DNA of 64,000 nucleotides from Gemmatimonas sp. (GTDB lineage Bacteria; Gemmatimonadota; Gemmatimonadetes; Gemmatimonadales; Gemmatimonadaceae): contig JANNVQ010000030.1 in NCBI GenBank assembly GCA_031414535.1, forward strand, positions 1 to 64,000. Direction: 5' to 3'. Below the pieces are notes generated by a model. It saw only the letters and a list, made by a program, of their open reading frames with translations, had not been told where the DNA came from and did no database searches. This document shows, one piece after another, positions 1 to 19,814 of this stretch (its first letter is position 1; every line of letters starts with the position of its first letter). A program made the position numbers and the translations under genes.

Positions 1-87
1 GGCCTCGGCTCCATCTTGTTGAAAGGTTCGCCGAGGCCCCACAACCGCATTTTATGGGAGCGCTCGCAGCAGAAGCAAACGTTATAC
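1..87 (+). repeat. attC site, right half (cut by window start)
   Basis: ...CCCCACAACCGCATTTTATG...CAGCAGAAGCAAAC-GTTATAC (R' 81-87); same right arm as the other copies. Confidence 0.85.
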
Positions 88-101
88 GCACGCCGCCGGC
101 T

Positions 102-143
102 CTGGCGTACCCGAACGCAATTCGGTACATTATTCCGTACCGA
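102..143 (+). promoter_or_regulatory. Putative TA promoter/operator
   Basis: TACATT -10-like box (126-131) lies inside the inverted repeat TCGGTAC-N8-GTACCGA (122-143), just upstream of the antitoxin. Confidence 0.5.
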
Positions 144-159
144 CCTTCTGGAGCCCGCG

Positions 160-441
160 ATGCCCAAGCTGAAACCGTCCCGTGATATCCAGCCCGTCAC
201 GGAGTTCCGCGCCAATGCCGCGCAGGTGATCGAACAGGTCCGCGAGACCGGCGCCCCCGTCTTCCTGACCCAGCATGGGCGCGGCGCCGCCGTGCTCCTC
301 GACGTCGAGTCGTACGAAGCCCTCGTCGACGAACTGGAGCTGCTGCGCGATGTGCGCACCGCCGAGACCCAGGTCGCCGCTGGCAAGGGTCGCAGTCACG
401 CCACCGTCGCCAAGGCCCTGCGCGCCCGCCTCGCCAAGTGA
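160..441 (+). CDS. Phd/YefM family antitoxin
   Basis: IQPVTEFRANAAQVIEQVRETGAPVFLTQHGRGAAVLL is Phd-like; GGAG before ATG160; GTGA overlap with the toxin. Confidence 0.9.
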   Translation: MPKLKPSRDIQPVTEFRANAAQVIEQVRETGAPVFLTQHGRGAAVLLDVESYEALVDELELLRDVRTAETQVAAGKGRSHATVAKALRARLAK

Positions 442-740
442 AGGTCATCTGGTCGCCGCTTGCGGAGCGGCGCGCCATCGAAGCCTTCGACGCCATCGCC
501 AAGGATCGGCCGCAGGCCGCCGCCAAGTGGCTGCGCGAGCTGCTTGCGCGTGTCGGCACGCTGGACCGGTTCGCGAAGCGTGGTCGCGTAGTGCCCGAGA
601 TTGGTAAGGCGACCCACCGACAGATCCTGCATCATCCGTATCGCATCGTCTATCGCGTGGACGCGAAGCAGGTGGTTGTGCTCACCATCCGGCACTCGCG
701 GCGCGACTGGGATTCGAGCGAGATCGTGCAGGGCGTATAA
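438..740 (+). CDS. RelE/ParE family toxin
   Basis: MKVIWSPLA...GRVVPEI...HPYRIVYRV...VLTIRHSRR; its TAA stop lies in the attC R'' box. Confidence 0.9.
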   Translation: MKVIWSPLAERRAIEAFDAIAKDRPQAAAKWLRELLARVGTLDRFAKRGRVVPEIGKATHRQILHHPYRIVYRVDAKQVVVLTIRHSRRDWDSSEIVQGV

Positions 741-871
741 CGACGCTTGCTACTGACGGTCGCGGGTAAGGATTGGGTTGGGCGGGGTGGCCGTGATGAC
801 CCGGGCTGGTTGCGGCCACCCCGCCCAACCCTTTCTATGATGAGCGTTCACAGCAGAAGCACACGTTATGG
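735..871 (+). repeat. attC site (intact)
   Basis: R'' GTATAAC; L'' GCTTGCTACTG pairs with L' CAGCAGAAGC leaving an extra G; R' GTTATGG; perfect 19-bp internal stem 775-793/813-831. Confidence 0.92.
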
Positions 872-898
872 CGACCAGGCAACCTTGGACGTGATCGA

Positions 899-1396
899 AT
901 GTCTCTCCGACAACTGACACTGGCGCTGTGCTTCTTGAGTGCGACCGTGGCCCATGCGCAGGCACGCACCCCGCGCACCGCAGCGGAAACTATCGCAGCC
1001 GCTCGGCGCACGCAGAATGAACTGCTGCGCATCGGACAGCTCGACTCAGCGGCCACGTTCTGGACCGAGGACATTGTCGTGTTGGCGGGGCTTGGCTCCC
1101 GCGTGGACGGTCGCGTGGCGCTACGAGACGCGTTTGCGCAGGATAGCATCGTGTTCTACCGCCGAGAGCCCGAGCAGGTGGACGTCAGTGCCAGCTGGCC
1201 GCTCGCCTTCGAGCGCGGTCGATGGGTCGGCGTCTTCCGCGGCGACACAAGCATCGTCCTCATCACCGGGTGGTACTCGGCCCGCTGGCTCCGTGAAGGG
1301 ACGCGGTGGCGCATTCAAGCCGAGCAGTTTGTCGCGAACGAGTGCCACCCTCTCGCGTGCACATGGCCCCTGGCGCCTCGGCGCGCGGCGCCATAA
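899..1396 (+). CDS. Secreted SnoaL/DUF4440 (NTF2-like) protein, cassette
   Basis: Signal peptide; FWTEDIVV...GRVALRDAF...AFERGRW...GWYSARW pattern; stop lies in attC. Confidence 0.75.
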   Translation: MSLRQLTLALCFLSATVAHAQARTPRTAAETIAAARRTQNELLRIGQLDSAATFWTEDIVVLAGLGSRVDGRVALRDAFAQDSIVFYRREPEQVDVSASWPLAFERGRWVGVFRGDTSIVLITGWYSARWLREGTRWRIQAEQFVANECHPLACTWPLAPRRAAP

Positions 1397-1526
1397 CGAC
1401 GCTTGCCGCCGACAGCCGCGGGTAAGGATGCAGTTGTGGGGCGCGAGCTTTATTCTATGGGACGTCCTGCGGCCGCCCGACAACTGCTTTTCATGGAAAC
1501 GGTTGTAGCAGAAGCACACATTATGC
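1391..1526 (+). repeat. attC site (R' GTT changed to ATT)
   Basis: CCATAAC-GACGCTTGCCG...GCAGTTGTGGG...CAACTGC...TAGCAGAAGCACAC-ATTATGC. Confidence 0.88.
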
Positions 1527-1540
1527 GAACGCCGCCGGCA

Positions 1541-1569
1541 TTGACGTGTGTCACGTTACACGTTACATT
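1541..1569 (+). promoter_or_regulatory. sigma70-like promoter of higBA with operator
   Basis: TTGACG-N17-TACATT; palindrome TGAC-GTGT-GTCA (1542-1553) and a CACGTTA direct repeat overlap it. Confidence 0.65.
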
Positions 1570-1574
1570 TCGGC

Positions 1575-1856
1575 GTGATCAAGACTTTCGCTGATCGGCG
1601 GACTGAAGAGCTCTTCCGCACAGGGAAAGCCAAGAAGGTGCCCGCCGACGTCGCGCGCCGTGCCCTGCGCAAGCTCGAAGCCGTGCACGTCGCGCATAAA
1701 GTCTCCGATCTCAAAGTGCCGCCCGGCCATCGCCTGCACGCCCTCAAGGGCGATCGCGCGAGGCAGCACTCGATTTCTGTGAACGACCAATGGCGCATCT
1801 GCTTCCGCTTCGAAGACGGGGACGCATTCGACGTCGAGTTCTGCGACTACCACTAG
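1575..1856 (+). CDS. higB: HigB toxin (RelE-like, proteic killer type)
   Basis: MIKTFADRRTEELF...PPGHRLHALKGDR..QHSISVNDQWRICFRF...DYH. Confidence 0.9.
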   Translation: MIKTFADRRTEELFRTGKAKKVPADVARRALRKLEAVHVAHKVSDLKVPPGHRLHALKGDRARQHSISVNDQWRICFRFEDGDAFDVEFCDYH

Positions 1857-1868
1857 CTGGAGTTTTCC

Positions 1869-2183
1869 ATGAGCATTGCCAACACCCGTCCGCTCGAGCG
1901 TCGGCCCATTCATCCCGGCGAGATACTGCGTGAGGACTTCGTGACCGAGTATGGCCTGTCGGTCACGGCGCTCGCCGAGGCCGCCGGTGTGTCGCGTCAG
2001 TCGATGAACGAGCTGCTACGCGAGAAGCGCGCCGTGAGCCCCGAGATGGCGCTGCGCCTCGGCAAGCTGTTCGGCACGTCGCCGGAGTTCTGGCTCAACC
2101 TCCAGCGCAATGTCGACCTGTGGGACGCGGCCCGCGGACTCAAGCGCGAGATTGCGCACATTCATCCCCTGCAAGTCGCATAA
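1869..2183 (+). CDS. higA: HigA antitoxin (HTH)
   Basis: PIHPGEILREDF...SPEMALRLGKLFGTSPEFWLNLQ; follows the toxin; stop lies in attC. Confidence 0.92.
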   Translation: MSIANTRPLERRPIHPGEILREDFVTEYGLSVTALAEAAGVSRQSMNELLREKRAVSPEMALRLGKLFGTSPEFWLNLQRNVDLWDAARGLKREIAHIHPLQVA

Positions 2184-2274
2184 CGGCGCTTGCTGCCGAT
2201 GAACGCGGCGAAGGATGCAGTGGCCCCACCACTGCTTTCTATTCAAGCGTCCGCGGCAAAAGCACATGTTAAAC
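2178..2274 (+). repeat. attC site (short, 97 bp)
   Basis: GCATAAC-GGCGCTTGCTGCCG...GCAGTGG/CCACTGC...CGGCAAAAGCACAT-GTTAAAC. Confidence 0.85.
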
Positions 2275-2287
2275 GCACGATCGACGC

Positions 2288-2316
2288 TTGTGACCTGATC
2301 GAGGGTTCAATACGTT
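2288..2316 (+). promoter_or_regulatory. Possible internal promoter of the MBL gene
   Basis: TTGTGA-N17-TACGTT ends 7 nt before ATG2324. Confidence 0.4.
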
Positions 2317-2323
2317 GTCGCAC

Positions 2324-3256
2324 ATGCTCGATTCTGGCCACCGCATACCTACAGTATCTCTCGCCGCAGCCGGCACTGTCATATTCGTGCTGTTCTTCGC
2401 GCTCACGCCGAGATCCGCGACCGCCCAACGCGCCGCTCTGACCGGTGCCTACGACTCCGCCGCGTGTCCCAGCTGCGCGGCCTGGAACGCGCCGCAAACA
2501 CCTCTCCGGCTCTTCGGTAACACCTACTACGTCGGCACGCGGGGGTTGAGCGCCCTGCTCATCACTTCGAATGAGGGCCATATCCTCATCGACGCGGGCC
2601 TCCCGAGCTCGGCGCCTCGCATTCTGGCGAACGTTGCCGCACTCGGTTTCCGCGCTTCGGACATCAGGATCATCCTCAATTCGCACGCGCACTACGATCA
2701 TGCTGGCGGGATTGCGGCCCTTCTGGAAGTCACTGGCGCGCGCGTGATCGCGAGTGCCGCAAGCGCACCAGTGATCACACTCGGCCTTCCCGACCATGAT
2801 GATCCGCAGCACGGCATTGCACTGCCGATGCCGCCAGTGCGCGATGTCGAAGTGCTCGACGCGGAGCAGGTTGTGCGACTCGGGCCGCTCGCGCTGACGC
2901 CCCACGCGACCGGCGGTCATACGCCCGGCGGCACCACCTGGAGCTGGCGTTCGTGCGACGGCGCGCGGTGCCTCGACTTCGTGTACGCCGACAGTCAATC
3001 GCCGATCTCCGAGGATGGCTTCCGCTTCACCGGCAGCACGCGCTACCCAACGGCGATCGCCGATTTCGAGCGAGGGCATACGTTGCTCGAGGCGCTTTCC
3101 TGCGATGTGTTGATCACCCCGCACCCGGGAGCGTCCTCGCTGTGGGAGCGCGCGACGACGGCACCCGAGGGATTGATCGACCGCCAAGCTTGCAGGCGGT
3201 ACGCAGCGTCAGCGAGGCGCGCCCTGCAGGCGCGGCTCGCCGTTGAGAAGCCCTGA
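2324..3256 (+). CDS. Subclass B3 metallo-beta-lactamase
   Basis: Signal peptide; WNAPQTPLRLFGNTYYVGT; NSHAHYDH, GHTPGG and LITPHP zinc ligands; FVYADS. Confidence 0.9.
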   Translation: MLDSGHRIPTVSLAAAGTVIFVLFFALTPRSATAQRAALTGAYDSAACPSCAAWNAPQTPLRLFGNTYYVGTRGLSALLITSNEGHILIDAGLPSSAPRILANVAALGFRASDIRIILNSHAHYDHAGGIAALLEVTGARVIASAASAPVITLGLPDHDDPQHGIALPMPPVRDVEVLDAEQVVRLGPLALTPHATGGHTPGGTTWSWRSCDGARCLDFVYADSQSPISEDGFRFTGSTRYPTAIADFERGHTLLEALSCDVLITPHPGASSLWERATTAPEGLIDRQACRRYAASARRALQARLAVEKP

Positions 3257-3607
3257 CCGTCCGCCGAACACGCGCAGACGGACTCGGGCATCAGGGATTT
3301 TGCACCTGCAGGTGCTCGTTGTACGCGAGGACGATGGCCAACCTCGTCAGGTGATCGATCTCGGTCACGGTTTGATGTGAATGCGGCTACCTGGCCGTGC
3401 GCGGAGCGAACACGACCAGCATCCACTCCTCGGTACCACTGTTCGCGTACGTTCGCGTGACACCAACCGCATCCGATGAGAGCGACGAGCACTGCCGTAG
3501 CCGGCGCGGCCGTCCGCTGCGGTGCGGCGGCAGCAGGCGAGAGAGCCGGGCGTTCCGCGCGCGGTCATATAGCGATCAGGCACGCTATGGTGGTGCCCGC
3601 TGCGCCG

Positions 3608-3649
3608 GCACATTTTATGGAGTGCCTGCCGCACAAGCCCACGTTTGCT
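3608..3649 (+). repeat. Degenerate attC right arm
   Basis: CATTTTATGGAGTGCCTGCCGCACAAGCCCAC-GTTTGCTGG resembles the arm at 48-87; its end nearly complements CCAGCTAGC at 4111. Confidence 0.6.
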
Positions 3650-3674
3650 GGACCTCAGCACACCAACGTTCCGA

Positions 3675-4118
3675 GTGAATACGCCCGCCCCTCACATCAC
3701 GCTAGATACGCAATCCGCTTTCGGGCGCCGCATTGGCGGCTGTCTCCTCGGATTCGTATTGTTCATTGTCTGCCTAACCGCGAGCGACTACATCGCGCGA
3801 CTGCTCCCGCCAATCGCGTTGCAGATTGGGGCGATCGTCATCGGGGTCGGTCTCATCCAACTCTTCCGGCTGGTCGCCGCACGGCGCTGGTACGTGGGGA
3901 CGCCGGATGTGGTCGAGATTCTCGCTGCGGACTTCACGAGCATTCGGCGTCGAGACCTCGCCGACATTCGATTAGAGTTTCCCCCCGACGCACCATTCTT
4001 TGAGCGCGCGTTGCACGAGACGCTCTACGTACTCAAGTGGTGCGCGCACTTGCTGATTTTCGCGGGTCTCGGAAGCCTCCTCCACTCGGGGATCCGCTAC
4101 TTCGGACTCGCCAGCTAG
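3675..4118 (+). CDS. Hypothetical membrane protein, cassette
   Basis: Three hydrophobic segments; lies between two attC-like sites. Confidence 0.55.
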   Translation: MNTPAPHITLDTQSAFGRRIGGCLLGFVLFIVCLTASDYIARLLPPIALQIGAIVIGVGLIQLFRLVAARRWYVGTPDVVEILAADFTSIRRRDLADIRLEFPPDAPFFERALHETLYVLKWCAHLLIFAGLGSLLHSGIRYFGLAS

Positions 4119-4173
4119 CGCAGCTTGCTGTCGACAGCCGCGGGTAAGGGTGCAGCAGAAGCAAACGTGATGT
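4113..4173 (+). repeat. Degenerate, internally deleted attC
   Basis: GCTTGCTGTCGACAGCCGCGGGTAAGG-GTGCAGCAGAAGCAAAC-GTGATGT; both arms are kept and the central stem is lost. Confidence 0.8.
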
Positions 4174-4188
4174 GCAAATGAGGTTTGG

Positions 4189-4596
4189 GTGATACTCAGG
4201 CTTACTCCACTACTCGTAGCAGTCCTCCCGATCGCTCTCCACGCGCGGAACCCAACGGTGCGCGAGGTGCCGCTTCGCGTCGATACCGTTCGCGTCGCGA
4301 CGGGTAGGACAGTTCTTCAATCCGGCAGTCGTGAAGGAGCTAATGGCGGAGATTTCGTCGCCTTCGTATCTGGACGTCAGTTGTGGACTATCGACGGGAA
4401 CCTCCGCGTTACGACACCAGTTCGATCCCCAGGTTTTCCGTAGCAGGCGAATCACTTTAGCGCCGTCTGCTTCGTCGAACGAATTGGGAGACACTGGGTC
4501 GTAGGCGCTGACTCTGGCGTCTATGTTGTGAAGCTACCGGTTCCTGGCTGGCGACCCTGGCGCCGTTCGGCCTGCTAGGACAGTTGAGGCGCGCGC
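4189..4596 (+). pseudogene. Degraded secreted-protein cassette
   Basis: Signal-peptide-like start, early stop at 4443; cassette ends GTGATGTGC/GCACATAAC still pair. Confidence 0.45.
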
Positions 4597-4636
4597 ACAT
4601 AACGATGCTCGCTGATTGACAGCTGCGGGTAAGCAT
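4597..4636 (+). repeat. attC left arm remnant
   Basis: ACATAAC-GATGCTCGCTGATTGACAGCTGCGGGTAAGCAT matches the family left arm. Confidence 0.7.
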
Positions 4637-4918
4637 CTGGATTGACTTCGATCGCGATACTGCGACCTTCGATGTGCAGTACGCCACCGCCGATGGTCGC
4701 CGCCACACCAATTGATGCGTCGTGCCGTCGCATCCGCTCGCCCGACAGGCGGTCCTTTGGGAGCGCCCGCTCCAAGGCACCGCATAGCGATGGACCCATT
4801 GCCCGGAGCGCTCGTGCCCGACATCGCCACCAACGTCGCACTCTGGCAAGTGGTCGCGATCGGCGCGCGTGGATTCGCACAGCCCCGAGAACTCGCCCTG
4901 AAGCTCCTCGCCGCCGGC

Positions 4919-4992
4919 AGCTAACGGCAGTTGGTGCAGATGGCCGCCCCAGGGAAGCAGGTGGGCGGCCGCAGCACAGCCACACGTTTATC
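4919..4992 (+). repeat. Short attC-like site
   Basis: AGCTAAC...GGCCGCCC/GGGCGGCC stem...GCAGCACAGCCACAC-GTTATCC. Confidence 0.65.
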
Positions 4993-5014
4993 CGACTTCG
5001 ACACGGTGATCTAA

Positions 5015-5956
5015 ATGAGAAGATTCACGGCCTGCGCGCTCCTTCTCTTCGCAACCAGTGGAACGCTATGGGCGCAGCAAGGCGTCCCGAGTTCGCCCGG
5101 CCGACACCGCATCGAGGTGCGCAGCTCGGCTGACGGAAGCCTGCAGCCGTCCTACGTCACTCTGCCTACAGAGCGTGGCGCGCCCGCCCCGCTCGCCGTC
5201 CTGTTGCACACGTGGAGTTTCGACCTCGAGCAGCGAGACTCGACGGTTGAAGCGGAAGCTCAGAAACGAGGATGGATCCTCCTCGCTCCCAACTTTCGCG
5301 GCCGCAACGATCACCCCCAGGCCTGCGGTTCTCCCGCCGCTCAGCAAGACATCCTCGACGCGGTGGCATGGATTCGCAGACACTACAGCGTGGACACTCG
5401 TCGCATCTACTTGCTGGGGCTCTCGGGGGGCGGCTACATGACAATGCTGATGGCCGCGAGGCATCCCGACCTGTGGTCCGCGGCAAGCGCTTGGGTCGGC
5501 ATTAGTGACTTGACGGCCTGGTACACGTCGCACAGCGAAGACCGGTACGGTGAGATGTTGCGCGCGTGCTTCGGCGGGAACCCCACCGCGAGCGACAGCA
5601 CCGCTCGTGAGTTCCAAGCGCGCTCCCCCGTCACCCACCTTGGTTCCCGGCACCGCGTTCCGATGGACCTGGCGGCGGGCCGCTACGACAGCGTCGTCGC
5701 CGTGTCTCACACCCTGCGCGCCTTCCAGTTGCTTGCTCCTGGGGTCGTGGCCGATGCCGACGTTGAGATGCTCATGTCAGACGGCCCGGGCCTTCCAGCG
5801 CCCGCCCCAGCCGATACGACGAGTGATCCGCTCCTCGGTCGCCGCATCTTTCTTCGTCGAGTGTCCGGTCCATCTCGCGTAACAATCTTCGACGGTGGCC
5901 ATGAGTGGGTGCCGCGCGCCGCGATTGAGTGGTTAGCGAAGCAACGTAAGCCCTAA
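5015..5956 (+). CDS. Secreted alpha/beta hydrolase (S9/prolyl oligopeptidase-like)
   Basis: Signal peptide; GLSGGG nucleophile elbow; FDGGHE His; stop lies in CCCTAAC. Confidence 0.8.
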   Translation: MRRFTACALLLFATSGTLWAQQGVPSSPGRHRIEVRSSADGSLQPSYVTLPTERGAPAPLAVLLHTWSFDLEQRDSTVEAEAQKRGWILLAPNFRGRNDHPQACGSPAAQQDILDAVAWIRRHYSVDTRRIYLLGLSGGGYMTMLMAARHPDLWSAASAWVGISDLTAWYTSHSEDRYGEMLRACFGGNPTASDSTAREFQARSPVTHLGSRHRVPMDLAAGRYDSVVAVSHTLRAFQLLAPGVVADADVEMLMSDGPGLPAPAPADTTSDPLLGRRIFLRRVSGPSRVTIFDGGHEWVPRAAIEWLAKQRKP

Positions 5957-6171
5957 CCGCTGTATCCGACTCTACCTTCCGTGCGTACCCTCCGGGAGGC
6001 AGTGATGGCCAAAACGCGCCGGGTGATTTGCTCGCTCAATACGAACATCGTCTTCAATGCGCTACGCCAGCCGGCCGAGCTCGACCGGTTGAAGACGTTT
6101 CTCAGCTGGGCGTTGCCGTCAACGGTGCTCTCAAGCGTCGTCGCCGCGGCGCTCACGACCAGCGCGCGGCC

Positions 6172-6240
6172 GTATGACGACGCTTGCTGCCGTCAACCGC
6201 GAGTGCAGTAGCGGTTGCGGACACCCTAGACACGTTAGCC
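6172..6240 (+). repeat. Degenerate attC
   Basis: GTATGAC-GACGCTTGCTGCCG...CAACCGC/GCGGTTG...ACAC-GTTAGCC. Confidence 0.7.
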
Positions 6241-6273
6241 AACGCCGCGCCGGCCAATCACCAAGCCCGACAA

Positions 6274-6735
6274 TCACGCCAACGTAGGTACCGACAGCTC
6301 AGACGTGCAGTGCGCGCATCGAGTCGCCCTGAGCGGAATGGGCGTGAGACACCGAGGACAGTCTTTCGTCGTCACCAGCGCGGGCGGCGGCGGTCCCTTC
6401 ATCTTGTTCACCGCCTTTACAAGCAGAAAGATGCAAAACGCGATGATCGTGAAGTCGATCATCGTGTTGATGAACGAACCGTACGCGATGACCGCCGCGC
6501 CAGCCTCCTGCGCTTGGACGAGTGAGGTGACGCCGGCCGTCTTGTCGGGATCGAGACTGACGAAGAGGTCCTTGAAGTTGACCCCGCCGAGCAACTTGCC
6601 GACCGGCGGCATCAGGATGTCGCCGACCAGTGACGTCACAATCTTGCCGAACGCGGCGCCGATCACGACGCCCACCGCGAGGTCGACCACATTGCCCCGC
6701 ATCGCGAACTCCCTGAACTCCTTTACCACTCCCAT
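6274..6735 (-). CDS. mscL: Large-conductance mechanosensitive channel with C-terminal CxxC-CxxC
   Basis: [33 protein letters not shown]...[15 protein letters not shown]...CAHC tail. Confidence 0.95.
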
Positions 6736-6819
6736 TTGCCGCTCCGGATGAGGTTTAGACTTGAGTGTACGCGGTCGAGATTCATGCACCCAATGCTGCA
6801 ACCTCGCCACAGACCCGCG

Positions 6820-6958
6820 CGCTAACGACGCTTGCTGACTGACAGCCGCGGGTATGGATGCAGTTCTGGGGCCGCCACGTCATCGTACATGGGACAGCCT
6901 GCGGCTTCCCCACGACTGCTTTTTATGAAAGCGTCCACAGCGGAAGCACACGTTATAC
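6820..6958 (+). repeat. attC site (intact)
   Basis: CGCTAAC-GACGCTTGCTGACTGACAGCCGCGGGTATGGATGCAGTT...ACTGC...CAGCGGAAGCACAC-GTTATAC. Confidence 0.9.
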
Positions 6959-7089
6959 CGACCACGCCAAGCTCGCTCCACCCTCAGCCATGGCCCAGTG
7001 GCCCGATTCGCGCGCTTCTATTCGCTAGCGTCGGCCGCTCTACTCAACGCGGAACCGCCGCGATCGATCCCAAAATAGCTGGGCCATGC

Positions 7090-7127
7090 GAGAAGGCCGG
7101 CGGGCTTCGCGCTCCGCCGGCCTTCTC
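7090..7127. terminator. GC-rich hairpin, probable terminator
   Basis: GAGAAGGCCGGCGG / CCGCCGGCCTTCTC inverted repeat just after the 7148 stop. Confidence 0.65.
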
Positions 7128-7147
7128 TGTTCAATCCCAACCGCGAA

Positions 7148-7645: not shown

Positions 7646-7989
7646 AGGGCAGGTCCTCGACGGGGGGAGAAACTCAATCGGGTCAGGCCGAGTATACGTC
7701 ATTATTCCTTTCCGCGCGAACGCAGTTGCGCCCGTGACACCCGAGACACCACGTGACGGTCGGCCTAGCGATCTCGGTCCTAGCTTGTTTCCCAGCGCTG
7801 ACAGCTGGCGCCCCCCTCCCCCGGACGATGCTCCGGCCTCGGTACGACACCCGGGGTGGGCGGCTACGTGACCCATAATACGCGACCCCGTGAGCTTGGG
7901 TCTGGCCGCGTCACCGACGGCGTTCGTTATCGAGCACGCGAGGTCAACACCGTCTAGCGCTGGGGGGCGGCGGTGGCTAGATAGCGTAC

Positions 7990-10203
7990 ATGCCTCGTCA
8001 TCTTGCCCGCTTCCTCGTGCTCGTCGCCGCCATCTCCAGCAGCGCGGGAGCTCAGCAGGAGGTACTGGAACCTGACAGCGGCACTCGCCGGCGACTCACG
8101 GCGCGGCGTGCGGCGGAGCCCATCACGCTCGACGGCCGCCTCGTCGAACCGGACTGGCAGCGCGCGCCGATCGCCTCGCAGTTCGTGAAGGTCCGCCCAG
8201 ACTACGAGCTGACGACGCGGTACCCCAGCGAAGTGCGCGTGCTGTTCGACGACGACAACCTGTACATCGGCGCGTTCAACCGCGACAGCGCCGGACTCAG
8301 CTCGTTGCGGATGCCGGATCTGCGTCGCGACTTCAGCCCGATGGAAAGCGACGTGTTCGCCGTGACCTTCGGGCCGCTTGGCGACGGACGCACCGCGTTT
8401 CAGCTGCAGGTCACGCCGCTCGGCTCGCAGGCCGATGTGCAGGCCTTCGACGGCGGCGCGAGCTTCAGCTTTAGCTGGGATGCCATGTGGCGCACGCGGA
8501 CGACGCGTTCGGATTCCGGCTGGGTGGCGGAGATCGCAATCCCGTGGACGTCCATCCGTTACGCCAAGGGACTCGAGTCTTGGGACATCAACTTCGTGCG
8601 CAACACTCGCCGAGCTGCGCAGTGGAGTGCCTGGGTGCCCTACCCGAGACAGTTCTCCTCGTGGCGGCTCACGTACTCGGGCCTGCTTGATTCGATTACA
8701 CCGCCTCCACCGCGCGCCAATTTGCGCTCGCGTCTCTACGGGCTCACGGAGAGCCGTCGCAGCAGTGCGGTAGGCGGATTCAATGGCAGCACAGGCGACG
8801 TCGGTGGCGAACTGATCTGGGCGCCCAGCGCCAACAGTTTGTTTGAAGCCACCGTCAACACCGACTTTGCACAAGCCGATGTGGACCGCCAAGTCGTGAA
8901 CCTGACGCGCTTCAGTGTGTTCTTTCCCGAACAGCGTCAGTTCTTCCTCGAGAATGCTGACCTTCTCACTGCGTCCAGCGCCGGTACCGCGCGACCGACG
9001 GGCGGCACGGCCAATCCCTTCGTGGTGCAACCGTTCTTCTCGCGGCGCATCGGATTGGGAGTAGATGGCACCCCCCGCCCGATTGTTGGCGGTGCGCGCT
9101 ACGGGTTTCGCACCGGGCGCACAGCCGTCGGTGCGTTGGCGATGCGGCAAGGCGGCATCGGCGCCACCGAGATGGACGCGTCTGACTTTGGTGTAGCACG
9201 AGCGAGTCAGTTCTTTGGGCGTTCCACGCGCGTCGGCGGGTTGGTGGCCTACCGCGATGGCTCGCGCGGCGGCGCAGGCACCAATGTGGTGTCGGCGGTG
9301 GACATGCTCACGCGATTCGGCGAGCAGGTGCAGTTAAGCGCGATGGTTTCCAGCTCATCGCAGAACGCAGAGACGGGCACCGCGGCGACTTGGGCGCTCA
9401 GCCGACGTACGCCGAGTTCGAGCCTCGGGCTTGCCGGCGCCTACGTGAACGATCGGTATTCGCCGAGCACGGGCTTCGTCTCGCGTCCGAACGTCATCAT
9501 GACCAGCCCGACGGCGGACATCACCCTCCAGCCAGCATGGCGACCCGCAAAACTGGTCTGGATTCGGCCCGAGCTGTTCACGCTGTTCTTCCACGATCCG
9601 GCCAGCAAGGCGCTGCAGGAAGCGCGCCTTCTATTGAACGCCGAGTTCCTTGGTGTAACCGGCGGCTCATTCACGCCATTCGTGGAGCACAACTTGCAGC
9701 GGCCCGTGAACAACGTGGCCCTGTTGCCCGGGGTGACGATTGCTCCAGGCGCGTACGACTACTCACGCTTTGGGGTGGACGTGAGCTCCGACCAGAGCGC
9801 GCAGATTGCACTCTCAACGCGAGTCTCGGCTGGCGGGTTCTTTGACGGAACGCAGGAGCAGGCCACGGTATCGGGACGTTGGTCGCCGAATCCGTACGTA
9901 TCAGTGCGTGCGTCGTATGAGATCAACCGCTTGCAGAGCCTCGGCACTGGGGACACATCGCTGGTGACGCATCTCGTGGGTCCGGAACTGCGCGCAAGTT
10001 TGAGTCCGCGCGTGCACTGGAGCGCGTTCTATCAGTACAACACGGTGCAGAAGAGTGGTGCGCTGAACGCGCGCTTCAGTTGGGAGTTCGCACCGCTGTC
10101 GTTCTTCTACATCGTCTACAACGATGGCCAGCCCATTCTCGATGGGCTGATGCCAAGATCGCGGTCGTTGATTGTGAAGCTGAGCTGGCTCAAGCAGCTG
10201 TAG
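7990..10203 (+). CDS. CBM9-like/DUF5916 outer-membrane protein
   Basis: ITLDGRLVEPDW; GWVAEIAIPWTSIRY; TVNTDFAQADVDRQVVNLTRFSVFFPEQRQFFLE. Confidence 0.8.
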   Translation: MPRHLARFLVLVAAISSSAGAQQEVLEPDSGTRRRLTARRAAEPITLDGRLVEPDWQRAPIASQFVKVRPDYELTTRYPSEVRVLFDDDNLYIGAFNRDSAGLSSLRMPDLRRDFSPMESDVFAVTFGPLGDGRTAFQLQVTPLGSQADVQAFDGGASFSFSWDAMWRTRTTRSDSGWVAEIAIPWTSIRYAKGLESWDINFVRNTRRAAQWSAWVPYPRQFSSWRLTYSGLLDSITPPPPRANLRSRLYGLTESRRSSAVGGFNGSTGDVGGELIWAPSANSLFEATVNTDFAQADVDRQVVNLTRFSVFFPEQRQFFLENADLLTASSAGTARPTGGTANPFVVQPFFSRRIGLGVDGTPRPIVGGARYGFRTGRTAVGALAMRQGGIGATEMDASDFGVARASQFFGRSTRVGGLVAYRDGSRGGAGTNVVSAVDMLTRFGEQVQLSAMVSSSSQNAETGTAATWALSRRTPSSSLGLAGAYVNDRYSPSTGFVSRPNVIMTSPTADITLQPAWRPAKLVWIRPELFTLFFHDPASKALQEARLLLNAEFLGVTGGSFTPFVEHNLQRPVNNVALLPGVTIAPGAYDYSRFGVDVSSDQSAQIALSTRVSAGGFFDGTQEQATVSGRWSPNPYVSVRASYEINRLQSLGTGDTSLVTHLVGPELRASLSPRVHWSAFYQYNTVQKSGALNARFSWEFAPLSFFYIVYNDGQPILDGLMPRSRSLIVKLSWLKQL

Positions 10204-10225
10204 AGAATCTGCAACGCTGCCGCCG

Positions 10226-10744
10226 CTAGAGCAGCCCATCAATCGGCAGCGTGCCCGCGGCGCCTTGGCTACCCTCCTGCATGCGCCGGTGATAGTCAAT
10301 CTGCCCAAGATGATATCCGAGATGCGCCGCGAGGTGCACAAGGAACCGCGACGTGCGGACTCTGTGCCCGGCCACAGGCTCGGGGAACTCTGCGCCGAGC
10401 GTATCATCGTCGAGAGTTAGCAGCGCCGCATCTACGGCGACTCGTGCGGCTTGCAGCTCCAACACCACCGCCGCGCGAGACATTGGTGGCTCGGCGCGCG
10501 GCGTGAATTCCTCGGCGCGATTGCGGGTGTACGTCGCTGCTCCCAACCGTACACCGATGAAGTGATGGAGATTCCCCGCCAAGTGACGCGCGAGGATTCC
10601 GCCGGAATTGCTGAGGCCGGGGACGGCGCGCCAGAGCGATGCATCGTCGGTGTAGGCCTCGACTTCACGGATGGTTGAGTCAATATCGCGCAGGATGACT
10701 GTGCGAATCGAGTCCAGAAGTAGTGCGGCTTGGTTGTCGCTCAT
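10226..10744 (-). CDS. DinB/DUF1572 family protein
   Basis: NSGGILARHLAGNLHHFIG...HLAAHLGYHLGQI. Confidence 0.85.
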   Translation of the reverse strand: MSDNQAALLLDSIRTVILRDIDSTIREVEAYTDDASLWRAVPGLSNSGGILARHLAGNLHHFIGVRLGAATYTRNRAEEFTPRAEPPMSRAAVVLELQAARVAVDAALLTLDDDTLGAEFPEPVAGHRVRTSRFLVHLAAHLGYHLGQIDYHRRMQEGSQGAAGTLPIDGLL

Positions 10745-10761
10745 GTGAGTGGACCGGTCGT

Positions 10762-12318
10762 TTACTGGAAGCTCCGCCGCGCCGGCGCGCAGACCAGCCA
10801 GTTGCGCGGATTACCCTGCGCGTTTGGCGGTAGCACGGAACGGTCACGCGGCACGCGCACCGGATCTTCTGACGCGAGGTAGGCCATCATCGCGGCGAGC
10901 GTTGCGTTGTTCTTCAGATCATCGATGATGATTTTGTCGTAGGTGTCGCGGTTGGTGTGCCAGGTGTACTGACGGTAGTCCGAATAGTGCGACTGCAACC
11001 GGAATCCTGGTGCGCCGCTGCAGAGGAACGACACGTGGTCACTGCCGCCGGTTTCCTGCGGCCCGGGCAGGTCGAGCTTGATGTGTTCCGAGATCTCGGT
11101 GGGCAGCGCCGCGACCCATTTGGCGAGGTTCGCACTCGCGCCGAGCAGTCCCTGCGCTTGGATGTAGTCAACGCGCCACGTGCCGTTGTCTTGGTTGAAC
11201 AGCGCTTGCAGGTTCTCGACCACGTCGGGATGATCCTCGGTGAAGGCGCGCGACCCGACAAGGCCCAGTTCTTCGCCGCCCCAGTGACCTACGAGGATCG
11301 TGCGGCGTGGGTTGGGATACGTCGCCTTCAGAATTCGCATCGCCTCCAGCATGGTGATTGTGCCGGTGCCGTTGTCCGTGGCGCCGGTGGCGGCGTGCCA
11401 AGAGTCGAGGTGCGCGGAGAGGATCACGTACTCGTTGGGGAGTTCGCTGCCGCGCATTTCCGCAATCACGTTGAACATCGGCGTCGTGCCAGTGCCGCTC
11501 GTCTGCGCGTTGATGCGAATGCGCGGTCCCTGCCGGTTGGTGGCCAGGCGATGCAACAACCCGTAGTCCTCGCAGGACAGGTCGAGTGAGACCGCCGTGT
11601 TGGTGGATGCGCCGAAGATCTTGTTGGTGCCCCAGGCCTGCGACCAGCTCAGCGTGAGTACAGCGGCAGCTCCGGCTGCTTCGAGGCGCATAGCCAAGTT
11701 GCCACCGATCAACTGCGCGCTGTTTCGCGACGCCGCTTGTGCCGCGCGCCGCGACTCATTCAACGCCGTGACGGTCTGCGGGCGCGCCAGCCGCTCCAGT
11801 GACTGCGGTTCACGGCAGGTCGGCTCGACGGGGCTTGCGAGCACCGCCTTGCCACGGATGGTGGCCATCCACTGCGTGGCTTCCTCCGCCGTCGTGAACG
11901 CAGGCATCGTCACCACGTCGGCATCGATTGCACGCGCCGTGCCGGGGCTCCACGCGAGAATCTCCGCTTCGAGCGTCTGAACGCGCGGCGCAATCATGTC
12001 CACGTGCACTGCGCCCTGCTGCCATGCGCGCCAGGTGCCGTACTGCTCGCGGCGCGCCGTGACACCGAGTTCGCGGTACACGCGCTCAAGCCAGGTGCCG
12101 GCCGCGTTGAATCCGGGCGAGCCCGAGAGTCGTGGACCAATGGAGTCCATCAGCACCTGCGCGAATTGGGCGGCGCGCGACTGCTCCATTCCTTGCGTCC
12201 ACATCTGGCGCAGCACGGGGTCGTTCGTCCGGAACGTCTGTGAGGACGCGACTTGAGCGCTAGCGCTCAGTGCGAGCGTGCCGATGGTGGTGGCGCGAAG
12301 CAGCGGGGCGAATTTCAT
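10762..12318 (-). CDS. M28 family peptidase
   Basis: AHLDSW, ATDNGTG, WGGEELGL, GSDH, WHTNRD; signal peptide from MKFAP. Confidence 0.9.
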   Translation of the reverse strand: MKFAPLLRATTIGTLALSASAQVASSQTFRTNDPVLRQMWTQGMEQSRAAQFAQVLMDSIGPRLSGSPGFNAAGTWLERVYRELGVTARREQYGTWRAWQQGAVHVDMIAPRVQTLEAEILAWSPGTARAIDADVVTMPAFTTAEEATQWMATIRGKAVLASPVEPTCREPQSLERLARPQTVTALNESRRAAQAASRNSAQLIGGNLAMRLEAAGAAAVLTLSWSQAWGTNKIFGASTNTAVSLDLSCEDYGLLHRLATNRQGPRIRINAQTSGTGTTPMFNVIAEMRGSELPNEYVILSAHLDSWHAATGATDNGTGTITMLEAMRILKATYPNPRRTILVGHWGGEELGLVGSRAFTEDHPDVVENLQALFNQDNGTWRVDYIQAQGLLGASANLAKWVAALPTEISEHIKLDLPGPQETGGSDHVSFLCSGAPGFRLQSHYSDYRQYTWHTNRDTYDKIIIDDLKNNATLAAMMAYLASEDPVRVPRDRSVLPPNAQGNPRNWLVCAPARRSFQ

Positions 12319-12471
12319 AACTCCTCGGAATGACTTACCTGTACGACAGCGGAGCGTCGCAAAGGGCGACGAACATTCGTCGAGTATAGTGCGCGATGGC
12401 CGACTCTGCGAGACCAACGGCGCCACGAGAACGCGCGTACCGGCCACCGCGCATTCAACGCCGACCTCAAC

Positions 12472-12536
12472 GATGCAGTTGTGGGGCGGCCGAGTTATTG
12501 TACATGGGCCGCACGAGCCGCCGCCCCACAACAGCA
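12472..12536 (+). repeat. attC central-stem remnant
   Basis: GATGCAGTTGTGGGGCGGC...GCCGCCCCACAACAGCA matches the cores of the 1391 and 6820 sites; R boxes are lost. Confidence 0.7.
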
Positions 12537-12563
12537 GGCTCTTGACCCATTCGAGGAGGCGTC

Positions 12564-12905
12564 ATGAACGCATCTGCCCTGCCGGACGAGACCCTTGTGG
12601 ACGTCCTCGAGGCGCGAGCGCGGCGCACGCCGTTTGACCGCTTGGTCATCGATCTCGTCGGAGGCCTGCTCGTCGGGGCCGTCGCTATCTGGGCGCGGCC
12701 ACTCGGCTGGTTTCCACTTGCCGCGGCCTCCGCGTGCTTCGCCTTCTACGGTGCCTGGGCACTAGCCGAACGCCACCTGCGCGACAACCATCCGCACGCC
12801 GCGTGGCGCTCGCTCGCTCGCGTGGCCGGCTGGCTGGGCTTGGCCGCGTTCGTCCTCCTGCTCTTCGCCCTCCTCGGCGTTGCACTCGGGCCGATCAAGT
12901 CCTAG
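12564..12905 (+). CDS. Hypothetical membrane protein
   Basis: Strong RBS GAGGAGG; three hydrophobic segments; lies between attC remnants. Confidence 0.65.
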   Translation: MNASALPDETLVDVLEARARRTPFDRLVIDLVGGLLVGAVAIWARPLGWFPLAAASACFAFYGAWALAERHLRDNHPHAAWRSLARVAGWLGLAAFVLLLFALLGVALGPIKS

Positions 12906-12935
12906 GACATCGCCCCCGGAGCAACAGGATCGGTT

Positions 12936-13004
12936 GGACAGCCTAGCGGGCCGCCGCACTACTGCTTCTTATTGAACCGTCCACGGCAGCAGCAAGCGTG
13001 AGGC
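12936..13004 (+). repeat. Degenerate attC right arm
   Basis: GGACAGCCTAGCGGGCCGCCGCACTACTGCTTCTTATTGAACCGTCCACGGCAGCAGCAAGC-GTGAGGC. Confidence 0.65.
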
Positions 13005-13027
13005 CGATACTTAACTGGAGGTGCCCG

Positions 13028-13447
13028 TTGAAGAGGCAGCTGGTTCCGTTCATCTTAGGCCTCGTGTTCATCGCCGGTGCGATTGCAATCAACATGCAGC
13101 AGCGCGCCCTTCAGCGCGACGACATCCGTGATATTGCGGGCCTCCGCGCTGAACTTGACTCCGTCCGTGCCATGCATGCGCGCGCGAGTACTGCTGCTGA
13201 CTCGGCGAGCCTGGCCGAGACTGTTGCTCGGCGTACGTATCTACTCGGGCGACGCGAGTTCCATGTGGCGCCTCGCCAAGAAGCCATCGACGGCTGGTGG
13301 ACACTTACCGGCCCAGGGATCGCCTTCAGCGCCGTCGGAGTGCTCTTCCTCGCCGTCGCCGTCGTCTCCGGCCGTCGCGGGCGGGCCAGCGCGATTCATG
13401 CTGGAATCGCCGCGCCAAGCTGTCGCTCGAGGGACTGCGGCCGCTGA
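13028..13447 (+). CDS. Hypothetical protein with two TM segments
   Basis: GGAGG before TTG13028; N- and C-terminal hydrophobic helices. Confidence 0.5.
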   Translation: MKRQLVPFILGLVFIAGAIAINMQQRALQRDDIRDIAGLRAELDSVRAMHARASTAADSASLAETVARRTYLLGRREFHVAPRQEAIDGWWTLTGPGIAFSAVGVLFLAVAVVSGRRGRASAIHAGIAAPSCRSRDCGR

Positions 13448-13578
13448 TTGCCCGAGAGCCGAGCGAGATGGCGATCGCCGACGGCGTCGCGGTCATCAAC
13501 GGCACGAGCCGTGACGGCGGCCCTGCGTGTGCCAGCGTTCCGTTGCTCGGGACCGGTTGGAGTCTTTTGCCTCGCAGG

Positions 13579-13713
13579 GGATAGCGGAGGTTGGTGCAGG
13601 TGGCCGCCAATCAGGATGCGGCTGTGGGGCGCTGGAGATATTCTAGGAGTCGTCCTGCGGCCGCTTTCTAACTTTGTCTATTAATGGGTCCCCAGCAGTA
13701 GCAAGCGTTAAGC
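13579..13713 (+). repeat. Degenerate full-length attC
   Basis: GGATAGC...AGGATGCGGCTGTGGGGCG...CCTGCGGCCGC...CAGCAGTAGCAAGC-GTTAAGC; 135 bp. Confidence 0.75.
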
Positions 13714-13758
13714 CGCACAACCTCGGCAATCAGCGAGGCCGGCCGACAGCAGGCCCGT

Positions 13759-14433
13759 GTGCTCTGCTTTCCGGAATGCTTCATCCCTTGGTATCGGTGG
13801 CCGGATACGATGCTCCCCGCGCCCGACCCGGTGTTCCAAGCTCAGGCATGGGCCACGGTGGCCGATGCAGCCAAGGTAGCCGAGGTAGCCAAGGTAGCGG
13901 AAGTAGCCGCAGTCACCGTACTTCTCGGCACGGAACGTCTCACCGAGCGCGGCCTGCAAATTGCGGCGTGCGTGATCAATGCAGATGGCACCATCGCGGG
14001 CTGGCAACACAAAGGGCAGCTCGATCCGGATGAGGAACTGCAGTATCCCACGTTCGGTGCGGACCGTCGCGTGTTCACGGCGCGCTCCCTGACCTTCGGG
14101 GTCGTGATCTGCCTTGAGGGGTGGCGATATCCCGAGACGGTGCGGTGGGCGGTGCGGCGTGGCGCGCAGGTCGTGCTTCATCCTCACGCAAGTCGGGCTG
14201 AACTAGGCGGCTATCGCCCTCTGATGTTTGCCGATCCGGCGAACTCGTTTCACGAGAAGCCGATTCTGTGTCGGGCCGCAGAGAACACGTGCGACTTTGC
14301 ATCCGTCAACTGTGCGAGCGACGGCTCCGGCACGACATCGGCCGTCGCACGGCCGGACGGGTCACTGCAGTGCGTGCAGCCCCATGGGCTCGCCGGCCTC
14401 TTGGCGGCGCGGTGTCGGACGTCGCCTTTGTAA
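13759..14433 (+). pseudogene. Carbon-nitrogen hydrolase (nitrilase family), truncated
   Basis: CFPE, QHKGQL and ICLEGWRYPE (E-K-C triad); N-terminal strand appears missing; contains a 9-bp repeat insertion. Confidence 0.7.
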
Positions 14434-14462
14434 CTCGTGCTCAGGCGGCTCTCGTGCCAGCG

Positions 14463-14500
14463 GCCTAACCATGCGTTGCTGCTGTAGGTCGGGTAGATCA
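14463..14500 (+). repeat. attC left arm remnant
   Basis: GCCTAAC-CATGCGTTGCTGCTG; GCGGCCTAAC complements GTTAAGCCGC at 13707 (9/10). Confidence 0.65.
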
Positions 14501-14524
14501 CGCGGCGGGTGGTGGCAGTGAGGT

Positions 14525-14905
14525 TCGGAACAGCCATTCTCAACGCTCGCCGCGTCCACGGCAACGGCCCGCGAGATGTGCACGGATTGACCGAGGCGAT
14601 CCCAGCCGGCCTGCACGTCCTGATGCGCGGCGACGGCGCTGCCGCAGGGCATCTTGAAATTAATCTTCTCCTTGAACGCGACCCGTCGGCCCGCCGAGCA
14701 ACTGTCCCGCCAGCCCGCGCGCTCAATCGGTGTTGAAGAGCTGATGGAAGCGCTCGTGATGCGGAGAGAACTTTTTCATCCGATTCGAGATGCGTGCGCC
14801 ATCCATTCTCGGATGGCTTGATCCGTCTGCGGGCCGACAACCTGAGCACGAGGATGCCGTCACGGTCCCAAGCCTTGAGATGGGCGTCAGAGAGCGTCTG
14901 CAAAC
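14525..14905 (-). pseudogene. Phytanoyl-CoA dioxygenase (PhyH) family fragment
   Basis: Pieces in different frames: LSDAHLKAWDRDGILVLR; KFSPHHERFHQLF; FKEKINFKMPCGSAVAAHQDVQAGW...AVDAASVENGC. Confidence 0.7.
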
Positions 14906-14982
14906 AGAAATGGAAACTGTGGAAAATCGGCAAGGAACTTCAATCGTGATCGGTCGAGAATCAGGTGCACGTACCGCGCAAG

Positions 14983-15117
14983 CGCTGACCACGCGAGGGC
15001 AAAGCCCACCGTCCGGATGACGTGGTGAGCCCGCCGCCTTGTGCGTGCGCGCAGGCCTAGCGGCCGCCCCACCACTACTTTCTATTGAACCGCCGACAGC
15101 TCAAGCGAAGGTTATTC
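14983..15117 (+). repeat. Degenerate attC
   Basis: CGCTGAC...GGATG...CCTAGCGGCCGCCCCACCACTACTTTCTATTGAACCG...GTTATTC; 135 bp. Confidence 0.65.
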
Positions 15118-15127
15118 GTACTTGCGC

Positions 15128-15169
15128 GTACCTGGGTGTACCTGGGTGTACCTGGTGTACCTGGGTGTA
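15128..15169. repeat. Tandem repeat (GTACCTGGGT)x4
   Basis: Three exact 10-mers plus one 9-mer. Confidence 0.95.
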
Positions 15170-15196
15170 ACTGCGCGCACCAACTTCTGAACAGTC

Positions 15197-15721
15197 TTGA
15201 TGACGCCTATCATCCGGCGCGCGACCGACGCTGACGCTGCAAATCTCGCGGAACTCGCGGCCCGCACATTTCGCGACACCTTCGGCGCGGACAATCGGCC
15301 CGAAGATCTGGATATGCACGTGGCGACAGCCTACGGGACGGTGCAACAAGCACGAGAGCTTGCCGACCCGACCATCTACACGCTCGTCGCTGATCAGGCC
15401 GGGACGCTTGTCGCCTTTGCACAGTTGCGCACCGGCGACGCGCCGGACTGCGTCATGGGTAGCGCGCCAATTGAACTCTCACGGTTCTACCTCGCGGCCG
15501 AATGGCATGGGCGCGGCCTCGCGCAAACCCTCATGGACCAGGTCATTGACACCGCCCGAGGCGCTGGCGCTGCGACGCTCTGGCTCGGTGTGTGGGAGCG
15601 GAATCCGCGGGCCATCGCCTTCTATCGGAAGGCTGGCTACCTCGACGTCGGCGCCCACGTGTTCATTGTCGGCACTGATCCGCAGACCGACCGGATTCTC
15701 GTCAGGTCGCTCGCACCCTAA
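15197..15721 (+). CDS. GNAT acetyltransferase (PaiA-like)
   Basis: IELSRFYL...HGRGLAQTLM...LWLGVWERNPRAIAFYRKAGY. Confidence 0.9.
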   Translation: MMTPIIRRATDADAANLAELAARTFRDTFGADNRPEDLDMHVATAYGTVQQARELADPTIYTLVADQAGTLVAFAQLRTGDAPDCVMGSAPIELSRFYLAAEWHGRGLAQTLMDQVIDTARGAGAATLWLGVWERNPRAIAFYRKAGYLDVGAHVFIVGTDPQTDRILVRSLAP

Positions 15722-15727
15722 GGCCCC

Positions 15728-15799
15728 ACATCACGACGCTAGCGCACGCTCCATCACCGCTGTCTATTGAAGCCTTCATCTCACCAACACACGGTCTCG
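15728..15799 (+). repeat. Highly degraded attC-like remnant
   Basis: ACATCAC-GACGCTAGC...CTATTGAAGC...ACAC-GGT echoes both arms. Confidence 0.4.
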
Positions 15800-15803
15800 A
15801 GTC

Positions 15804-16334: not shown

Positions 16335-16399
16335 CGGGCAGTGGGTGACGCTGAGGAGGTCATCCCGATACCTCCTTTCACCTCAGGATAGGTTGCATC

Positions 16400-19785: not shown

Positions 19786-19814
19786 CACTTTCTTCCTATC
19801 TCCTCAATCGAGGT

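Follow-up and report, generated by a model that had tools for sequence, protein, structure and literature searches.

The window analysed here comprises the first 64 kb (64,000 nt) of contig C30 of the genome of a freshwater Gemmatimonas sp. (G000; 3.7 Mb, 58 contigs), and window coordinates are those of the contig. Its left part carries integron cassettes and their attC recombination sites in various states of decay. It was compared with four further genomes, namely G267 (closed, same genus), G166 (sister species), and G110 and G051 (same genus). Together the results make it probable that the window is the oldest, distal and decayed tail of a large chromosomal integron, sedentary and of the inverted-integrase type. 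In the sister genomes G267 and G166, large arrays of 34–62 sites have their attC bottom strands on the lagging-strand template, with intI intact.

Results

Seventeen attC elements were placed in positions 1–15,800, all on the plus strand. A preliminary description had counted about 14 elements of ~135 bp here; the repeat is real, and all 12 motifs quoted for it occur where they had been placed, but only five elements are ~135 nt long (starting at 735, 1391, 6820, 13579 and 14983) and the other 12 are 61–97-nt forms, single arms or relics. Cassette ends were scored by complementarity at positions 5–9, i.e. beyond the shared core (maximum 5/5). Folding was judged by the pfold run in which R and L boxes were both constrained; looser constraints raised the values of decayed window sites to 0.37–0.75.

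The contig starts within an attC of which the 3′ part is left (e0, 1–87; profile match, R′ GTT at 81). The cassette behind it (81–741; ends 5/5) encodes a YefM/Phd antitoxin (160–441) and a ParE toxin (438–740) and is attC-flanked in G166 too. The next site, e1 (735–871, 137 nt), is the only one in the window whose strong fold is intact (−37.5 kcal/mol for the bottom strand, z −6.3, pfold 0.62); two attC copies from other contigs fold at z of about −8, and the other full-length window sites tested range from z −1.4 to +0.6. A cassette with a DUF4440 protein gene (865–1397, gene at 899–1396; ends 5/5) is closed by e2 (1391–1526, 136 nt), which is decayed (R′ core ATT, z −0.2), and a HigB-HigA toxin-antitoxin cassette (1520–2184; ends 5/5; attC-flanked in G267, G166 and G051) by e3 (2178–2274), a mismatched 97-nt short form with z −2.3.

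Behind e3 lies a gene for a subclass B3 metallo-beta-lactamase (2324–3256), which scores 313 bits with NF033105 against a cut-off of 240, shows the HxHxDH motif in alignment and has Rm3 and AIM-1 as nearest solved relatives. Homologues occur in 39 of 200 same-family genomes and in 0 of 4 same-genus genomes. We rejected this gene as a live cassette: the unit ends match at only 2/5, the site is a relic, and 29 of 29 homologue loci are without a nearby attC. The weak relic e4 (3567–3649, 83 nt, 14 bits) is followed by a decayed cassette for a membrane protein of no family (3643–4119; ends 5/5), by e5 (4113–4173), a 61-nt site without a fold that was probably shortened when the stretch between two consensus TGCAG words was deleted, and by a second decayed cassette (4167–4603; ends 5/5) that runs into e6, a left arm only (4597–4640). 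Then come the 73-nt relic e7 (4920–4992), an alpha/beta-hydrolase gene (5015–5956) whose unit matches at 1/5 and has lost its closing attC, a truncated PIN-like remnant (6004–6177; 53% to a PIN cassette on contig C1) and the 69-nt relic e9 (6172–6240).

The gene mscL (6274–6735, minus strand) stands antisense between e9 and e10, in a unit whose ends match at 2/5. It is the only mscL found in G000; the G110 homologue is without attC, and the query matched 2 of 18 other same-genus genomes. This arrangement is possibly a snapshot of a chromosomal gene bracketed by attC. Site e10 (6820–6958, 139 nt) has both R cores intact and decayed stems (z −1.4, pfold 0.008). The block that follows (6959–12450; SnoaL-like, CBM9/DUF5916, DinB and M28 peptidase genes) is free of attC, so the array does not continue to 15,799 as had been described. 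The block is possibly a long cassette with a lost closing arm; a search for its partner end found none. Farther right are an inner stem (12472–12540), a right arm (12933–13004), the heavily decayed e13 (13579–13713, 135 nt, z +0.6), an old cassette with a carbon-nitrogen hydrolase fragment (13707–14469; ends 4/5; left arm only at 14463), the relic e15 (14983–15117, 135 nt, 34 bits) and a GNAT gene (15197–15721) with the last relic, e16 (from 15728), reaching 15799. An Rfam scan of positions 1–20,000 gave nothing above chance.

Five of the 12 scoreable units thus match at 5/5 and one at 4/5; the remaining six, including the pair quoted earlier at 6234/6821, match at ≤2/5, and the complementary ends that had been ascribed to each cassette are confined to the former. 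What had been taken for a typical array is its decayed tail.

A profile built from 66 near-full-length attC copies was searched over the G000 contigs. With a threshold of E<0.05 it gave 112 matches, spread over 18 contigs; the reversed genome, searched as a control, gave 0. The matches merge to 110 chromosomal attC sites, against a criterion of >19 sites; most members of the family are 133–145 nt long, and the copies form clusters in which they share an orientation, at a spacing of about one gene (median 621 nt). The bottom-strand hairpin, laid on 34 aligned copies, pairs 95.5% of cells; compensatory cells number 80, against 24 after shuffling, a count that is not readable as a probability because the copies are related. 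Values of pfold exceed 0.1 in 52 of the 62 scoreable G000 sites (median 0.84; 4 of 66 were unscoreable), and the bottom strand is more stable than the top strand by 2.0 kcal/mol on average. The family folds with R and L boxes, an unpaired spacer and 2–3 extrahelical bases 6 pairs apart, as attC sites do, and as the preliminary description had asked of a genuine array; the third extrahelical base is optional (11 of 62 sites).

A structure scan of G000 gave 68 matches, 62 of which have what we call the 7/8 geometry, with seven bases from R″ to the first extrahelical base; in these that base is a C (bottom strand) at position 15 and the spacers are of 4 and 5 bases. Five scan matches lie outside arrays, a number consistent with the 7 from the reversed control. 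Every scored site in four G267 and G166 arrays has the same geometry and the C, under a pattern that allowed 7 or 8. Usual attC sites have G at position 16, T at 23 or 24, and spacers of 5–6 bases (PMC5027507), and a G16-to-C change had little effect on a Vibrio site (PMC2727003). The extra G that had been noted in L″ is indeed there on the top strand; the strand that recombines therefore has C where canonical sites have G as their first extrahelical base. As a unique trait the C was rejected, since it is found in 120 of 121 same-family sites and also, among 55 sites from other taxa, in 18. In these two sets the 7-base offset is present in 36 and 7 sites; it also occurs in the canonically oriented G051 and G050, and marks the genus more than the family. 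A co-variation of the attI spacer with attC geometry was unsupported, a 4-base spacer accompanying 8/9 sites too. On 73 non-Gemmatimonadota loci the attC model reached 32 bits at best.

Cassette ends outside the window are matched far beyond chance. In G000, 43 of 55 consecutive pairs are perfect at positions 5–7 against 6.8 ± 2.2 in 10,000 shuffles, with a search pattern that missed the window's own sites, and over G000, G267 and G166 the ends match in 221 of 246 intervals (chance 5%). With the intact integrase and attI described below, these results bear out the earlier identification of an integron array, and we conclude that the repeat is an attC family of a lineage-specific type.

G000 has a single IntI, encoded without stops at C31:45,572–46,611 and scoring 413.7 bits with TIGR02249, whose curated cut-off of 265 bits defined an IntI call. 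Catalytic residues and the integron-specific insertion domain, which the preliminary description had suggested looking for, are present in the IntI of G000, G267 and G166. The attI site lies ~95 bases behind the IntI stop, with its GTT at C31:46,705 and the complementary end of the first cassette at 47,329. Its core, TAAT-N4-GTT, is conserved in four species (G000, G267, G166 and G110), and a promoter-like element near it, TTGCGG-N17-nAnnnT, conserved in G267, G166 and G110, is a candidate Pc only. LexA was present in 5 of the 5 genomes tested for it. The intI gene lies upstream of attI and the array and reads in their direction. This inverted layout is known from other integrons (10.1101/030866; PMC8352920).

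Among 48 same-family loci, 19 are inverted (18 distinct genes), none is canonical and 29 could not be called; the stretch fetched for many of the long loci was mainly downstream, and the 29 symmetric ones gave 7 inverted, 0 canonical and 22 without a call. Seventy-three loci from other taxa gave 7 inverted and 19 canonical. In an IntI tree (FastTree only) the G000 protein falls in a 77-row branch (local support 87) that holds all 7 inverted loci from outside the family, both Treponema rows and no canonical locus; Cury et al. describe the inverted group as paraphyletic (10.1101/030866). All six named Gemmatimonadota IntI rows mix with same-family rows. Above the cut-off, IntI occurs in 88 of 151 same-family genomes and in 128 of 301 genomes of the phylum, unpublished genomes included, and is concentrated in two families. 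The gene is at the same locus in G000 (C31), G267, G166 and G110, and at other loci in G051 and in the case of the second intI of G110. G000 is empty at the locus occupied in G051, and two intI genes are present in G110 (L132, L156, L157). The end of C31 (L013:10595–10836) is a fold-back, the reverse complement of the preceding sequence after an attC loop, and is probably an assembly artefact.

Seven further attI copies, two in G000, two in G267 and three in G166, head arrays without an intI. Six of the seven were checked, and in all six the first cassette carries the complementary end. The copy on G000 contig C23 covers 148 nt at 92% to the C31 region, including the last intI codons and the promoter-like element, and that on C10 covers 35 nt at 94%. 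No attI was seen at the head of one G267 satellite or of the small cluster on G000 contig C9. At a locus common to G000 (C10) and G166, the last 25 attI bases are of each host's own type, a pattern that points to gene conversion or to co-evolution with the resident IntI. Since most multi-site satellites start at an attI copy, we regard them as platforms without an integrase gene rather than plain secondary-site insertions.

In the closed genome G267, a C31-like backbone, intI, 62 attC sites and a C30-like backbone (from C30:61,615 onward) follow each other in one orientation, and the higBA cassette of the window is near the distal end of that main array too. By this synteny the window most likely forms the tail of the array that follows intI, with intI to its left, as had been anticipated; the G000 assembly itself is without a C31–C30 join. 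Positions 1–61 kb most likely lie in a variable region. Beyond the last relic, a multicopper oxidase gene (17827–19785, plus strand) has no attC here; its homologue in G267, 76% identical, is a cassette flanked by attC. An accessory island that is not at the G267 locus occupies 20,900–61,600 and includes Entner-Doudoroff genes, a glycoside hydrolase, TonB receptors and a catalase-peroxidase. One gene there has internal repeats with a period of ~520 nt (44265–45126), and a 15-nt tandem repeat lies at 54643–54702.

Some intervals between attC sites are very long. Eleven of 13 intervals >3 kb have ends matched at 5/5, the largest being 14.7 kb (L015:1753–16460), with outer-membrane, HlyD and AcrB-family resistance-nodulation-division efflux genes and a P-type ATPase gene; 9.8-kb relatives occur in G267 and G166, in different arrays. 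Cassettes of 3 kb are reported to excise well only on the lagging template (PMC5371416), which may link the long cassettes to lagging polarity. At least 10 G000 cassettes have a toxin-antitoxin Pfam match, and PADLOC matched 3 of 40 cassette proteins, one of them clearly (a type IV restriction enzyme). Looking up protein clusters yielded no names. Only 5 of 87 G000 intervals are shared with the fetched G267 arrays and 10 of 87 with the fetched G166 arrays, and small cassettes occur as tandem near-copies.

Other observations concern the cassettes of the arrays at large. A multi-gene merR and merC-like cassette (L021:3136–4219) is common to G000 and G166, and Mrr and SIR2-like cassettes occur elsewhere in the array. 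Families of 185–251 nt without a convincing gene are multi-copy and often tandem (L021:828–1017, L014:44–233, L217:2470–2658; many in G267 and G166); gene-less cassettes are known from Vibrionaceae (PMC11014356). An IS30-like element (L018:2733–3962, G000 contig C9) lies just behind a cassette R′ box in 7 of 7 same-genus copies, with homologues in G267, G166 and G051, and a second one (L019:836–1927) just before R″ in all 3 copies with a readable end. These are possibly attC-targeting insertion sequences, the name IS30 being a reading of their domains. A ~700-nt repeat family has >20 copies in G000 (L160 versus C29, C49 and C14).

Replication polarity was read from GC skew, codon-skew score, dnaA position and gene strand, alongside counts of KOPS-like octamers. 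In G267, dnaA is at base 25, the GC skew is positive in 9 of 9 samples at 0.2–1.5 Mb and negative in 7 of 9 at 1.7–3.2 Mb, the gene strand switches at about 1.6 Mb, and 100 of 149 forward KOPS-like matches lie before 1.37 Mb. The attC top strands are minus at 1.29–1.34 Mb and plus at 2.33–2.42 and 3.12–3.16 Mb; set against the replichores, every bottom strand is on the lagging template. This polarity is common to all four G267 loci (62, 36, 6 and 5 sites) and the three G166 loci counted (34, 58 and 13). For G000 it was read from C30, where the bottom strand is likewise on the lagging template (flank: KOPS-like octamers 4:14, GC skew −2.6%, codon-skew score −90); C1 and C10 agree, and C9, C16 and C23 are ambiguous. 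A strongly strand-biased genome region switches direction where the KOPS-like octamers switch. Such a region is a hallmark of the phylum (PMC11237797), and together with the mixing of IntI rows it lends indirect support to the earlier assignment of the genome to the Gemmatimonadota. A search for a dif-like motif gave no match. On G000 contig C57 and at L240, a negative skew persists over at least 20 kb rightward of dnaA, which suggests that origin and dnaA do not coincide there.

Beyond these genomes, polarity was tallied by manual reading, with dnaA taken as the origin and intI >100 kb away on the same contig. Of 14 scoreable intI, 9 were canonical and 5 head-on, and among the 5 head-on genomes only G441 has many motif matches (24). 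Lagging polarity as a phylum-wide trait was rejected on these canonical readings.

Discussion

Taken as a whole, the results are best explained, in our judgement with good confidence, by a sedentary integron of the inverted type, with the window at its distal end, that persists with lagging polarity. If established integron biology applies, IntI would insert cassettes at attI by a G|TT crossover on the folded bottom strand. Cassettes would age toward the tail, where decay of attC may freeze genes such as the B3 lactamase and mscL. A single IntI would presumably serve all attI-headed arrays in trans, and the lagging-template polarity would make excision easy, that of multi-kb cassettes included.

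This polarity stands against the current model, which attributes the survival of large chromosomal integrons to the placement of their attC bottom strands on the leading-strand template. Among 30 sedentary integrons surveyed by Loot et al., 25, with a median of 100 cassettes, had the bottom strand on the leading template, and the five exceptions were Xanthomonas arrays of ≤22 cassettes (PMC5371416). When the Vibrio cholerae array was inverted, excision rose from <7e-5 to 3e-2 (>400-fold) and cells were killed via toxin-antitoxin loss; the evolved response was inactivation of intI or re-inversion of the array (PMC13108822, PMC11023631). A literature search by title and abstract opening, with most subscription papers outside its scope, returned no report of large lagging-template arrays.

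Several observations weigh against our interpretation. The 9 canonical readings in the 14-genome tally are joined by G051, which is mixed and whose main array reads canonical, and by three canonical single sites (two in G166, one on G000 contig C14). G000, G267 and G166 are kin and so count as about one event, and the published rule itself was drawn from no more than 30 integrons. The skew is positive in two G267 left-arm samples, and at the C31 flank the codon skew (+32.7) and GC skew (+2.55%) conflict with lagging polarity, with which the KOPS count there (1:3) agrees. This conflict, and a GC skew that is weak in the lineage, would fit a misread polarity, or a recent inversion yet to be purged. 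We consider either very unlikely, because the position of dnaA, the skew, the KOPS-like octamers and the switch in gene strand all point the same way, and because the same polarity recurs at independent loci on both replichores in three species with 70–85% backbone identity. A consensus-promoter scan around intI and attI found none, and the matched ends of long units would also be expected if islands had inserted into small cassettes. The C31–C30 link rests on G267, G000 being fragmented; no contig-end overlaps joining the G000 array pieces were found, the contig starts inside an attC, and the tail flank of the G166 main array matches C5, not C30. Since G000 has three attI heads and several tails, the window could instead be the tail of a satellite array without an integrase, headed by the C10 or C23 attI or by none. 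We judge this unlikely, given that C31 and C30 backbones flank the G267 intI array in the same orientation and that higBA is near the distal end in both genomes. That the repeat is a dispersed element of the repetitive extragenic palindrome or miniature inverted-repeat transposable element type, rather than an attC family, is hardly credible: it is palindromic, ~135 nt long and present in ~110 copies, but these are clustered, co-oriented and gene-spaced, have pair-specific matched ends and follow attI and intI, and the end-matching test had already refuted a scattered repeat, the outcome that would have overturned the preliminary description.

To explain how excision-prone arrays might persist we favour, at somewhat less than an even chance, a high-turnover steady state in which IntI expression is low and stress-gated and excised cassettes re-enter at several attI, because few intervals are shared between the genomes and small cassettes form tandem near-copies. 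Ranking next, and rather unlikely in our estimate, is a throttled system, in which the one-base shift with C at the first extrahelical base, or an IntI of weak excision, suppresses attC × attC excision and makes orientation irrelevant; a brake from shifted attC geometry is the main alternative. The near-uniform 7/8 geometry of the G000 sites and of the scored G267 and G166 sites, set beside the usual positions and spacers, speaks for it. Against it are the small effect of the G16-to-C change in Vibrio, the presence of the 7-base offset in the canonically oriented G051 and G050 and in sites from other taxa, and the fast turnover of cassette content. Contigs of two public DNA data sets (one study) cover the window tail evenly; their joints there are explained by repeated attC and so are no evidence of excision. 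Among the public runs listed as holding the sequence there was no RNA data set. Beyond the high-turnover account, we regard as a doubtful but possible extension a distributed high-flux integron, in which one integrase feeds several attI-headed arrays, all excision-prone, 5–15-kb multi-gene cassettes (e.g. a metal-efflux operon) move as units, and attC geometry and co-evolving attI keep toxin-antitoxin-rich arrays viable in an orientation that is toxic in Vibrio.

The element resembles several known systems. Like the inverted integron-integrase group, including the 'reverse integrons' of Treponema (Cury et al., 10.1101/030866; Ghaly et al., PMC8352920), it has intI co-oriented with the cassettes and attI at its 3′ end; unlike that group, it has its own attC family, and neither orphan attI heads nor replication polarity figure in the portions of those two descriptions available to us. 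Attachment-site clusters and single sites far from intI recall CALIN and SALIN (10.1101/030866; 10.1101/2022.09.11.507474), except that most multi-site satellites examined here start at a recognisable attI copy. The Xanthomonas chromosomal integrons are the only lagging-template sedentary ones in Loot et al., and they have ≤22 cassettes, erosion and frequent intI inactivation (PMC5371416), unlike the 34–62 sites per array and intact intI found here. With the Vibrio superintegrons and their repeats the element shares ~100 homogeneous long attC sites, an optional third extrahelical base, toxin-antitoxin and gene-less cassettes and insertion sequences; it differs from them in the bottom strand on the lagging template, the high pfold, C at position 15 versus G16, the co-oriented intI and the several attI-headed arrays. 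Gemmatirosa also belongs to the Gemmatimonadota. The element of Gemmatirosa kalamazoonesis KBS708, with >10 attC sites, is likewise a large array, given only as a count, with attC anatomy, attI and polarity not described in the part of the report at hand (10.1101/2022.02.28.482270). The phylum had been called one with little integron characterisation, yet it is already listed as integron-bearing (PMC8618304). As an integron of this phylum the element is another member of a known group, distinct in its polarity, its orphan attI heads, its long cassettes and a C one base nearer the R box. These traits do not extend to the whole phylum. The window alone could not show the most unusual of them, namely polarity, orphan attI heads and very long cassettes.

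The window shows cassettes becoming fixed chromosomal genes, and in orphan attI platforms large CALINs could have a concrete origin. The prevalence of IntI in the family and phylum marks out a reservoir of cassettes that has been overlooked; the survey of Ghaly et al. (PMC8352920), which works with attC models, included none for it as far as its available text goes. The stated rule is challenged by the polarity of large intact arrays, together with the long cassettes and the satellites headed by attI, and a natural array in the disfavoured orientation with an intact intI makes the leading-template rule testable. If the distributed high-flux integron is true, it would be a natural exception to the rule of killing by cassette loss and a second design for large integrons.

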